Shown: in pieces, positions 45,911-47,284 of the stretch
How the letters are laid out: each line of letters begins with the position of its first letter
Numbering within the stretch: the stretch's first letter is position 1
NCBI GenBank assembly: GCA_930991035.1
Contig: CAKNRV010000002.1
Span: 19,134-83,133 of the forward strand
From: an uncultured Clostridium sp.
Lineage (GTDB): Bacteria > Bacillota > Clostridia > TANB77 > CAG-508
Length of the DNA stretch: 64,000 nucleotides
Direction: 5' to 3'
The notes under the pieces: generated by a model
Told to the model about the DNA's origin: nothing
What the model saw: the letters and a program-made list of their open reading frames with translations, nothing else
The model's database searches: none
Position numbers and translations under genes: made by a program

Positions 45911-45943
45911 TTATTTAGGTTTTTATGGCTGTACCTATAAACC
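45911..45943 (-). promoter_or_regulatory. Conserved leader motif copy (TTATTTAGGTTTTTATGGCTGTACCTATAAACC) upstream of the active M16 gene
   Basis: Shared with 47249-47284, 31646-31684 and partially 29967-29988. Confidence 0.45.
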
Positions 45944-45950
45944 ATAACAA

Positions 45951-47225
45951 CTAATCACGTAAAAAATAAACCGTATTTACCTCTATATCTTTTGCTACTT
46001 CTTTTATATCTTCTTTCTTTACATTATTTATTTTTTCTAAATACTCGTCTACGCTAACAAACTTTTCTGATAATTCTTGTCCATAGTAATAAGTTATTTC
46101 TGTGTCTTGCTCTGCACTAATGCTTCTTATAGAAGAGATTATCAATTCTTTCGAGTTATTTACATCTTCGTCTGTAAATTCTCCATTTTTTATATCTTCT
46201 ATTTGCTTTTCTATTGTTTTTAGTGCTTTTTCATAATTTGCTATTTCTATACCACATCTAATAAATATAGCATCTTTTTGTCTTCTATATGTTGAGCCTG
46301 CTGTATATGCCAAGCTTTCTTTTTCTCTAACATTTTGGAATAGTTTTGAGTTTGCTCCTCCTCCAAGAATTGCGTTATACACAGATGTAATATATCTTGC
46401 ATTTTCTGTATTGCTATTTACCGAAAGGCCTATTACTAAATTACCTTGTCCTACTTGTTTATGCTCTTCTACTACATTTACGTCTTTTATATGCTTTGGT
46501 GTAACTTGTTCTTTGTATGGAACATATTTTGCATTTCTTTCTTTTAATTTTGCAATTTCTTTATTGCTTGTAATTATATTATTAATTTCTTCTTGCTCTA
46601 TTTCGCCTGATGCAAATATATCTATTTTACATTCGTTTATCATTTGGTTGTAATATTGGTATAAAGACTCTGGTGTAATGCTTTTCAAGTCTTCAACATA
46701 TCCGTATCTATATAGTCCATAAGGTTCATTTTTGAACATTTCTTCTACGCATCTTTCAAGCGAATATCTTCTTTTGTCGTCTATTTTTGATTCTATTATT
46801 TGTTTTAAGTTCTTTTTTTCGCTTTCTACATATTCGCTTTTAAAGCCATTGTTTTCTACTAATGGGTTGAATATTATATCGAATAATAGGTCTACACATT
46901 GTTTTGTAAGTTCTTCTTTAGTTGGTAGAAATTTTTCGTTTAATGCTTCTAAATAGAATTTCATTATATGATTATCTCCTGTTTTTTCTATTCCACAGTC
47001 AAATGATGCACCATACATTTCTTCTAACTTTTTACTTATTTGATCTTGTGATTGTATGTTATTTGTTCCTCTTCTTAAAACCGCTGTTAGTAATGCATTT
47101 TTTGTTACAGTTTCTCTATCTAGTGGCATTGCTATAAATACTGCATATAGGTTTGTTTTAAATTTGTTTGTTTTTATGTTATGAATTGTTATGCCCTCTT
47201 TTATTTTTGTTTTGTTATAGTTCAT
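45951..47225 (-). CDS. M16-family peptidase, inactive (non-HxxEH) partner subunit
   Basis: Full M16 fold length (424 aa) but no HxxEH motif; the corresponding region reads NALLTAVLRRGT. Confidence 0.7.
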   Translation of the reverse strand: MNYNKTKIKEGITIHNIKTNKFKTNLYAVFIAMPLDRETVTKNALLTAVLRRGTNNIQSQDQISKKLEEMYGASFDCGIEKTGDNHIMKFYLEALNEKFLPTKEELTKQCVDLLFDIIFNPLVENNGFKSEYVESEKKNLKQIIESKIDDKRRYSLERCVEEMFKNEPYGLYRYGYVEDLKSITPESLYQYYNQMINECKIDIFASGEIEQEEINNIITSNKEIAKLKERNAKYVPYKEQVTPKHIKDVNVVEEHKQVGQGNLVIGLSVNSNTENARYITSVYNAILGGGANSKLFQNVREKESLAYTAGSTYRRQKDAIFIRCGIEIANYEKALKTIEKQIEDIKNGEFTDEDVNNSKELIISSIRSISAEQDTEITYYYGQELSEKFVSVDEYLEKINNVKKEDIKEVAKDIEVNTVYFLRD

Positions 47226-47248
47226 TTTTACTCACATTCCTTATTTTT

Positions 47249-47284
47249 ATATTTAGGTTTTTATAACGGATGTACCTATAAACC
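47249..47284 (-). promoter_or_regulatory. Conserved leader motif copy (ATATTTAGGTTTTTATAACGGATGTACCTATAAACC) upstream of the inactive M16 partner gene
   Basis: Same motif family as 45911-45943. Confidence 0.45.

Follow-up and report, generated by a model that had tools for sequence, protein, structure and literature searches.

In the preQ1-I riboswitch, a short hairpin with a UAG-containing loop is followed by an A-rich tail and by a strand with CUA that base-pairs with this loop, the whole lying 5' of the ribosome-binding site (RBS). The leader of phage T4 gene 32 carries a 5' H-type pseudoknot, from which an unstructured A/U-rich stretch runs into the RBS, and serves the autoregulation of one protein. 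In Firmicutes, 5' stabilisers such as the aprE leader stem-loop, the cryIIIA STAB-SD and the processed gapA 5' hairpin protect the message from 5'-to-3' decay. Repeats of the repetitive extragenic palindromic (REP) type occur in both orientations, mostly 3' of genes, and REP sequences are adjoined by IS110-family elements. Reused or 'putative mobile' promoter regions, that is, highly similar 5' regions before non-homologous genes, sometimes across taxa, have also been described (PMC3575422). The present analysis concerns a short motif found in 64,000 nucleotides of DNA from an uncultured Clostridium sp. (contig CAKNRV010000002.1, positions 19,134 to 83,133 of the forward strand; this whole stretch is referred to as the window), where it precedes both genes of an M16 peptidase-like pair and genes at the tail of a secretion block that resembles a type IV secretion system (T4SS). 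The motif is an undescribed RNA leader family of ~50 nt that lies before the RBS of unrelated genes, and it is best modelled as an H-type pseudoknot adjacent to the Shine-Dalgarno (SD) sequence.

Three copies that match the pattern GGTTTATAGGTA-N(11-14)-ACCTAAATA exactly, in both half-sites, are present on the minus strand of the window, the mRNA sense, while dinucleotide-preserving shuffles gave an expectation of 0.00 matches; the repeated motif reported in the first-pass annotation is therefore real, non-random and strand-specific. Copy 1 (47250-47284) lies in the 5' untranslated region (UTR) of the ymfF-like gene and reads GGUUUAUAGGUA-CAUCC-GUUAUAAAA-ACCUAAAUA in the mRNA, with an SD-like AAGGA at 47238-47242 and the ATG at 47223-47225. 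The intercistronic spacer between the ymfF-like and ymfH-like genes holds copy 2 (45912-45943), which begins 7 nt past the ymfF stop codon and reads (UAU)GGUUUAUAGGUA-CAGCC(AUA)-AAA-ACCUAAAUA, its SD (AAGGA) being located at 45900-45904 and the ATG at 45886-45888. Copy 3 (31649-31684, the exact pattern match covering 31649-31683), which reads (AUG)GGUUUAUAGGUA-AAUCC(CAU)-UUAAAG-ACCUAAAUA, stands before a gene for a hypothetical protein of 445 aa, downstream of the NlpC/P60-lysozyme wall hydrolase gene, and is followed by the SD AAGGG at 31636-31640 and the ATG at 31624-31626. Measured from the end of ACCTAAATA, the ATG is 24, 23 and 22 nt away in the ymfF-like, the ymfH-like and the 445-aa gene, respectively.

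A fourth, truncated copy on the same strand (29976-29987) consists of the right module only (AAAACCTAAATA) and precedes a gene for a 321-aa hypothetical protein whose start codon is at 29948-29950. It had been proposed as a half-site at 29967-29988, which proved correct: the right half AAACCTAAATA is again exact at 29976-29986 and is followed by the TATTATATA..GAGG spacer seen in copy 3, while the left half is missing. The order is AAAACCUAAAUA, UAUUAUAUAUGAGGAUUGAGGAAAA and then the ATG of the 321-aa gene, with 25 nt between the end of the right arm and this ATG, and 17 nt, CCTAAATATATTATATA, are common to the truncated copy and copy 3. In an nhmmer search it matched profile positions 26-50 only (E = 0.067), and as the left module is absent it would be unable to form the pseudoknot described below. 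With right arms that end 22-25 nt before the ATG, the placement of the motif directly before the RBS, as originally noted, holds for all four copies, which fall inside 17 kb. The window contains a fifth exact ACCTAAATA at 1869-1877, which looks like a chance occurrence because neither an SD nor a start codon lies behind it, and a profile hidden Markov model (HMM) built from 120 copies detected no further copy in the window.

A scan of one genome per GTDB species with the same 21 specified bases as the window pattern gave at least 119 loci from ~105 assemblies (individual loci are designated below by L numbers); all family-wide counts given here, whether of copies, downstream proteins, spacing or covariation, rest on loci among the matches listed. 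The carriers are nearly all uncultured gut Clostridia or 'Clostridium sp.' metagenome-assembled genomes (MAGs) from human, rabbit, chicken and mouse, with the addition of Lachnospiraceae (Extibacter muris, Acetatifactor) and one Tissierella MAG. The motif is also present on a few phage contigs in IMG/VR, where relaxed patterns gave mostly chance matches that were filtered with the profile HMM. The sequences flanking the 119 genome loci yielded six more good copies, often at 0.6-2.5 kb from the initial one. Motif density is thus uneven between genomes, and the sequence is nearly constant wherever it is present.

The genes behind the motif share no evident theme, as the 107 downstream proteins represent 140 Pfam families, none of which occurs in more than five proteins. 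They include methionyl- (metG), glutamyl- (gltX), phenylalanyl- (pheS), histidyl-, alanyl- and lysyl-tRNA synthetases, NusA, RimP, GroEL, GrpE, acetate kinase (ackA), the products of prfA/B and topA, sigma factors, ABC ATPases, several sporulation proteins, phage proteins and many secreted hypothetical proteins. Because these genes are unrelated, the earlier suggestion of joint regulation of the M16 pair and the tail of the secretion block as one set is not supported. When the whole window was compared with Rfam 15 at gathering score, three tRNAs were the only matches, and a scan at E <= 10 of window positions 45850-45990 and of L090 (5150-5330) gave chance-level matches only (E = 1.2-5.4). 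In the literature, an exact 12-mer of the motif was met only in unrelated bisulfite primers, and keyword searches gave nothing relevant.

The position of the motif is set by the start codon. ACCTAAATA precedes it by a median of 22 nt, and 102 of the 111 scored copies lie in sense orientation at 11-28 nt; eight further copies, some of them cut by contig ends, have no callable open reading frame (ORF), and the sense orientation, with an ORF downstream, is common to essentially all copies. The consensus between the right arm and the start codon is TATTATAcAAGGAg. On the upstream side, by comparison, the 60 nt that precede G1 (the first base of the left arm's GGUU) have background composition at each position, save for an A-rich -3 to -1, and hold no -10/-35 signal at a fixed distance. 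Strong sigma-A-like sites (at least 10 of 12 matches), sought as far as 130 nt upstream of the motif, are present in 19 of 105 upstream regions as against 7.8 +/- 2.5 in shuffles; the -10 element lies a variable 11-72 nt from G1, ending 11-26 nt before it in 10 of the 19. No promoter-like hexamer pair occurs inside the motif in any of 105 copies. Where the upstream gene is co-directional, approximately one third of the copies start -9 to +30 nt from its stop codon, and where the neighbour is divergent the spacer is always at least 122 nt.

The motif is predicted to be a transcribed leader or intercistronic element and not a promoter, because sigma-A promoters lie upstream of it at variable distance and about one third of the copies concerned follow closely upon a co-directional stop. 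The gap from one arm to the other takes a continuous range of lengths, 6 to 19 nt, so that neither a bipartite promoter nor a fixed dimeric operator is tenable. Among the mechanisms put forward in the first-pass annotation, a post-transcriptional one (translational operator or processing site) fits best, a dedicated sigma or activator element is disfavoured by the lack of internal promoter pairs, and a generic sigma-A UP-element or -10 feature, which had been named as a possible trivial explanation, is not what the motif represents. At five loci (distance -9) the upstream ORF stops at the UAG within the motif itself (GGU UUA UAG), so that a terminating ribosome would unwind the proposed fold; ten other copies begin 6-9 nt past the upstream stop codon.

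Structurally, the motif fits best as an H-type pseudoknot with an A/U-rich spacer and AAGGAG behind it. A first stem, S1, would pair (NNN)GGUU(U), of which G1G2U3U4(U5) is the 5' strand, with (A)ANCC(NNN), and a second stem, S2, would pair the hairpin-loop UAGGU with a downstream ACCUA. Read from 5' to 3', the S1 5' strand would be followed by one or two unpaired bases, UAGGU, A12, the S1 3' strand, a linker and finally ACCUA, A12 being unpaired in the class of copies with 3 nt before CC and paired to U4 in the 1-nt class. Loops 1 and 2 would measure 0-2 nt, and loop 3 would be an A-rich variable linker ending in AAAA. Beyond ACCUA, an A/U-rich single strand of ~13-14 nt (AAUA + UAUUAUAcA) would lead to AAGGAG, with the start codon ~7-9 nt later. 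The model was suggested by the discrete placement of CC, which follows GGTA at a distance of exactly 1 or 3 nt in 115 of 122 copies, together with the conserved A run 5' of ACCUA (AAAA, at least 90% conserved).

Evidence for S1 comes from positions that the search pattern had left free. The base 5' of G1 (-1) and the base 3' of CC (+1) are complementary in 70 of 113 distinct copies, where permutations give 55.1 +/- 4.3 (0 of 2000 reach 70), and they remain so in 63 of 106 copies (P = 0.013) when near-identical Lachnospiraceae rows are left out. The pairs comprise 44 A-U, 11 U-A, 11 G-C and four G.U/U.G, and a G at -1 goes with a C at +1 (Fisher P = 0.0015). Non-canonical copies retain a helix around AUAGG by other means (AAGUUG/CAACUU, UGUCU/AGACA, AGUU/AACU). 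These data support the view that S1 is kept through compensatory changes, with the caveat that related sequences are present in the set. Within the window, S1 of copy 2 may reach seven pairs (UAUGGUU/AGCCAUA), three flanking pairs of which are compensated relative to the family consensus AAA/UUU; in copy 3 the -1 G stands opposite a +1 C, followed by U-A and A-U, giving three compensated pairs (AUG|GG..CC|CAU); and in copy 1 the stem is weak (G-C, G-C, U.U, U-A) and without extension. As for S2, UAGGU/ACCUA is invariant apart from L115b (UAGAU/AUCUA, a compensated change) and L351 (UGGGU, giving G.U), and we infer that this helix forms as well.

The first-pass annotation had recognised the TAGGT/ACCTA inverted repeat, which is indeed present; it is probably one stem of a pseudoknot and not a simple hairpin. 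A simple hairpin or nested two-helix fold was rejected, as RNAalifold keeps only UAGG/CCUA with four consensus pairs at -1.1 kcal/mol. Minimum free energies from RNAfold do not improve on those of shuffles (mean z = -0.57), and a pseudoknot would be expected to fold this poorly when nested pairs alone are allowed. L066b and L317 are likewise not accommodated by the nested model, which does not predict the -1/+1 covariation either; this covariation contradicts it, because nesting puts the +1 base opposite the invariant A8. Sequestration of the SD by an anti-SD sequence in the loop-side CCUU was likewise discarded: CCUU is enriched, and inspection revealed no covariation with bases 5' of the SD.

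Compared with the described systems, the proposed fold resembles the leaders of the preQ1-I (RF00522), SAM-II, fluoride and guanidine-III classes in being a small H-type pseudoknot beside the SD, and at ~35-45 nt it is similar in size to leaders of the preQ1-I type. In contrast to preQ1-I, the motif is multi-copy per genome and its downstream genes are tied to no single pathway, its loops 1 and 2 would be too short for a ligand-pairing C, the SD would lie outside the fold, and RF00522 is not among the Rfam matches at E <= 10. Queuosine genes were absent from the most frequent downstream Pfam families listed and none was recognised by eye among the proteins read. The preQ1-I-type pseudoknot beside the SD is the closest described architecture, although model match, gene association and ligand pocket all fail. 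The fold would mark the 5' boundary of the translation-initiation region as does that of the T4 gene 32 leader, although the latter is a single site, whereas dozens of unrelated genes follow the motif, which has no known binding protein. Like the Firmicutes stabilisers the motif precedes the RBS, often with a promoter-like -10 close by (11-26 nt, 10 of 19 copies), but those stabilisers are gene-specific and the motif is a conserved family across species.

In its genomic behaviour the motif most closely approaches REP-type repeats and reused 5' regions, neither of which is locked to start codons. Like REP sequences and their mosaics (BIME) and Correia repeats it is a short imperfect palindrome which is multi-copy, intergenic, co-transcribed and patchy, and like REP sequences as IS110 targets it is adjoined, in Lachnospiraceae, by an IS110-family element; unlike them it is sense-only, locked to the SD and start codon and almost unchanged between bacterial families. 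It also differs from the regions of PMC3575422 in that its common part is a transcribed leader plus SD, a promoter being included only in a phage cassette and in the TGGCAATA subfamily.

The history of the motif at a given site can be followed in the ymfF-ymfH spacer, which carries it in the window, L061 and L113. All three of these copies have AU straight after the loop-side CC, which suggests common descent. The motif is absent from this spacer in all of 80 metagenome ymfH loci (1.04 Mb), whose proteins are 36-85% identical to the YmfH proteins of the three motif-bearing loci and include relatives at 74-85%; the sole copy upstream of ymfF is that of L131, and a single convincing profile match was obtained in the 1.04 Mb. 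The motif is thus dispensable and often lost or replaced, and the conservation in orthologous regions that the original interpretation would have led one to expect was largely not encountered.

Several observations bear on mobility. In some subfamilies, the copies at several loci, and those at contig ends, do not differ over ~60 nt. In a mouse-gut Lachnospiraceae contig, L096 carries at 345-1803 an IS110-family transposase gene (Pfam DEDD_Tnp_IS110 + Transposase_20), and the same situation is seen at the contig ends of L011, L040, L064, L093, L097, L107 and L114. The ~250-nt 5' non-coding end of this gene adjoins an extended form of the motif, GGAGATGTAAAGAAGNAGGTCTNAG-GGTTTATAGG..., with the junction ~25-30 nt upstream of G1; the same IS110 end stands before different genes in several genomes, and the 25-nt extension is kept in the IS-free copies L082, L090 and L098. 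This suggests that an IS110-family element targets the extended motif, which would explain contig breaks at these places. A plasmid or phage origin of the 80-nt Lachnospiraceae variant was discounted, as BLAST yielded no match in PLSDB or INPHARED. In phages and prophages (IMG/VR L388-L396, L251), a ~95-nt cassette recurs before unrelated genes, often at contig ends; it consists of TACAGGAATATCCTGTATAAT (a palindrome plus -10 box), 14 nt and GGGTTATAGGTTACCTTTATCAACCTAAATACATTATATAAGGAG, that is, promoter, motif and SD as a unit, and the genes behind it encode a serine recombinase and, as recognised by eye, an XRE-type regulator and a holin-like protein. In the subfamily L006, L012, L020, L038, L054, L095 and L123, TGGCAATA is conserved directly 5' of G1, and L012, L095 and L123 have an extra conserved upstream stretch of ~40 nt, AGYTACTATAARTAT..., suggesting a second type of promoter-plus-leader cassette.

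The interpretation that we favour, at a probability of roughly 45%, is that the motif may serve translation initiation and mRNA stability as a portable cassette, namely a cis-acting pseudoknot leader that has been reused by copying. The module would be transcribed within the mRNA, either in the 5' UTR or between cistrons, and would act on the cistron directly behind it. Its compact fold, at about -25 to -60 from the start codon, would form the 5' edge of the RBS and would shield the open A/U-rich SD region from RNA further upstream; decay in the 5'-to-3' direction may be blocked by it as well, where the promoter is close or once the transcript has been processed. Genomes, prophages and mobile elements of gut Clostridia would have reused the cassette by copying. 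We infer this function from a family of sequences with a constant strand, a fixed distance to the start codon, a place downstream of promoters and covariation in S1.

A number of points weigh against this interpretation. The near-invariance of the stems across families exceeds what a purely structural insulator needs, which hints at a partner that reads the sequence. The motif is dispensable at orthologous sites, as it is missing from most of them. With regard to the fold, the arms of S2 were fixed by the search pattern and the informative variants number two, approximately half of the copies place a U opposite U3 and so have a U.U mismatch in S1, positions -2/+2 display no excess of pairing, and L212/L232, L087b/L363 and window copy 1 have no convincing S1.

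The same RNA element could alternatively be a regulated translational operator, with the pseudoknot as receptor; its trans-acting partner, whether a protein, a small RNA or a small ligand, would switch translation of the scattered genes as a global post-transcriptional regulon. This is possible, though we consider it doubtful. Stem and loop sequences that hardly vary over distant lineages and many loci point to a sequence-reading partner, genomes seem to hold either several copies or none, as the loss of a trans factor would give, and the architecture mirrors that of the preQ1-I riboswitch; the SD, however, lies in neither helix but ~13-14 nt past the ACCUA strand of S2, loops of 0-2 nt leave no ligand pocket, the downstream genes are without common function, no Rfam family matched even at E <= 10 and no candidate partner came to light. 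In its most far-reaching form, which seems to us rather unlikely, this reading would make the motif a new class of RBS-adjacent pseudoknot that serves as a common receptor on dozens of unrelated mRNAs of gut Clostridia and their phages. The partner would be a protein, a small RNA, a ribosomal component or a small molecule, and the receptor would act as a lineage-wide 'address label' that subjects housekeeping, envelope, sporulation and phage genes to a single translational control and that is copied or targeted by phages and IS110-type elements.

Patchiness at orthologous sites (none of 80 ymfF-ymfH spacers, as against the window, L061 and L113), the clustering of copies 0.6-2.5 kb apart, identical ~60-mers at different loci and contig ends, the adjoining IS110-family element in Lachnospiraceae and the described reuse of prokaryotic promoter or leader regions (PMC3575422) would also be expected of a selfish or duplicative small palindromic repeat, of the REP kind or that of miniature inverted-repeat transposable elements, which carries or adjoins an RBS, persists as a harmless or mildly useful passenger and has its sequence constrained by a mobilising enzyme. 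We nevertheless regard this as improbable, because nearly all copies are in sense orientation with the SD and start codon at a fixed distance, where a neutral repeat would be expected in both orientations and elsewhere; the upstream sequence shows neither a target-site duplication nor a conserved target, the CC-AU common to the three ymfH-spacer copies argues for descent with loss and not for repeated insertion, and the covariation indicates selection on RNA pairing. A DNA operator, in which a dimeric transcription factor would bind the dyad TWTWTAGGT...ACCTAWWWA, could account for the partial dyad symmetry and the strong conservation of sequence, but is very unlikely: a continuous range of half-site spacings, 6 to 19 bp, could not be accommodated by a fixed dimer, placement follows the start codon and not the promoter, copies occur between co-transcribed cistrons, orientation is always sense and the flanking positions covary as G-C, A-U and U-A pairs.

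The arrangement in the window itself, with four copies between 29.9 and 47.3 kb beside or inside the T4SS-like block, is what had originally suggested a dedicated promoter, activator or operator, for instance of a sporulation sigma factor, that co-regulates the M16 pair and the genes at the tail of the secretion block, and some of the downstream genes elsewhere are sporulation genes, as recognised by eye. This is now highly improbable, since arms at variable spacing match no -35/-10 geometry and the motif contains no promoter-like pair, since the housekeeping genes metG, groEL, nusA and ackA carry it, and since relatives with the same ymfFH and T4SS-like synteny are without the motif there, except for L131 with one copy upstream of ymfF. 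Promoters of the sigma-A, SigE/F/G/K, SigH, SigB, extracytoplasmic function (ECF) and TcdR types, the sporulation-sigma class proposed for checking at the outset among them, were rejected on the same grounds of variable spacing, lack of internal hexamers and a housekeeping gene set. Sites of dif/Xer, integron attC, ops/RfaH, the RAT antiterminator, the CtsR operator and complementarity to 16S rRNA were dropped as poor fits.

With regard to the genes served by the window copies, all of which are on the minus strand, the ymfF-like gene (45951-47225) matches NCBIfam YfmF_fam (430.9 bits) and Pfam Peptidase_M16_C with a weak match to the catalytic domain, and the ymfH-like gene (44599-45888) matches NCBIfam YfmH_fam (454.6 bits) and Pfam Peptidase_M16 + M16_C and contains HFLEH. 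A full-scoring M16 catalytic domain is present in the YfmH-like member only, in agreement with the initial description of an active peptidase with an inactive partner; the NCBIfam label for both is that of EF-P 5-aminopentanol-modification-associated proteins. The exact window YmfH protein is present on eight contigs. The 445-aa (30289-31626) and 321-aa (28985-29950) hypothetical genes, served by copy 3 and the truncated copy respectively, are taken from the ORF list, and their products have no match in Pfam or NCBIfam. A sigma-A-type promoter-like site, TTGAAT-18-TATAAT (47357-47386, minus strand), is located between rpsU and ymfF, 72 nt upstream of copy 1. The rpsU gene (ribosomal protein S21, 56 aa, 47461-47631, minus strand), which lies between ymfF and a cysK-like gene (47826-48788), was missed by the 80-aa ORF list and was placed by means of the L205 gene table; a perfect TTGACA-18-TATAAT occurs upstream of it at 47715-47744. 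Between ymfH and the first pilin gene there is a 63-aa Spo0E-like aspartyl-phosphate phosphatase gene (44268-44459, minus strand), called from the Pfam SpoOE-like entry in the same table.

The synteny of window positions 31787-47225 is kept in the gut metagenome contigs L125, L131, L134-L144, L157, L166 and L205, in the order ymfF, ymfH, Spo0E-like, three VirB2/TrbC-like pilins, PrgI-like, TraC-like, VirB4, a 992-aa protein, a 318-aa protein and the NlpC/P60+lysozyme hydrolase. Across these contigs VirB4 identity is 72-90%, while that of YmfH is just 52-70%. Neither a relaxase nor a coupling protein was seen among the window proteins scanned, and the syntenic block looks like a conserved chromosomal T4SS-like machine and not a recent integrative and conjugative element. 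The minus-strand gene run that holds the T4SS-like block ends with a D-Ala-D-Ala carboxypeptidase gene, just past which there are two tRNA genes (25421-25491 and 25686-25756, minus strand). Further minus-strand features of the window include genes for two very large proteins, at 3338-10861 and 19751-24688; the 1645-aa protein, probably a surface adhesin, has DUF11 repeats and a thioester (TED) domain, and the 2507-aa protein has a 62%-identical homologue in L145. A pair comprising a PhD/YefM antitoxin and a ParE toxin is encoded at 51232-51820 (minus strand; Pfam annotations in the L205 gene table).

For the organism at hand, the motif is not usable as evidence that would link the EF-P-associated YmfF/YmfH pair functionally to the T4SS-like cluster. 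If the model of a portable leader holds, the motif would represent an undescribed and widespread structured-RNA family in largely uncultured gut Clostridia, with the unusual traits of being multi-copy, locked to the RBS and common to chromosomal genes, prophages and mobile elements. It would also explain some of the recurrent contig breaks in gut metagenome assemblies and would provide a natural 'insulated RBS' cassette for anaerobe genetics, as well as a marker of post-transcriptional control in organisms for which there are no genetic tools.

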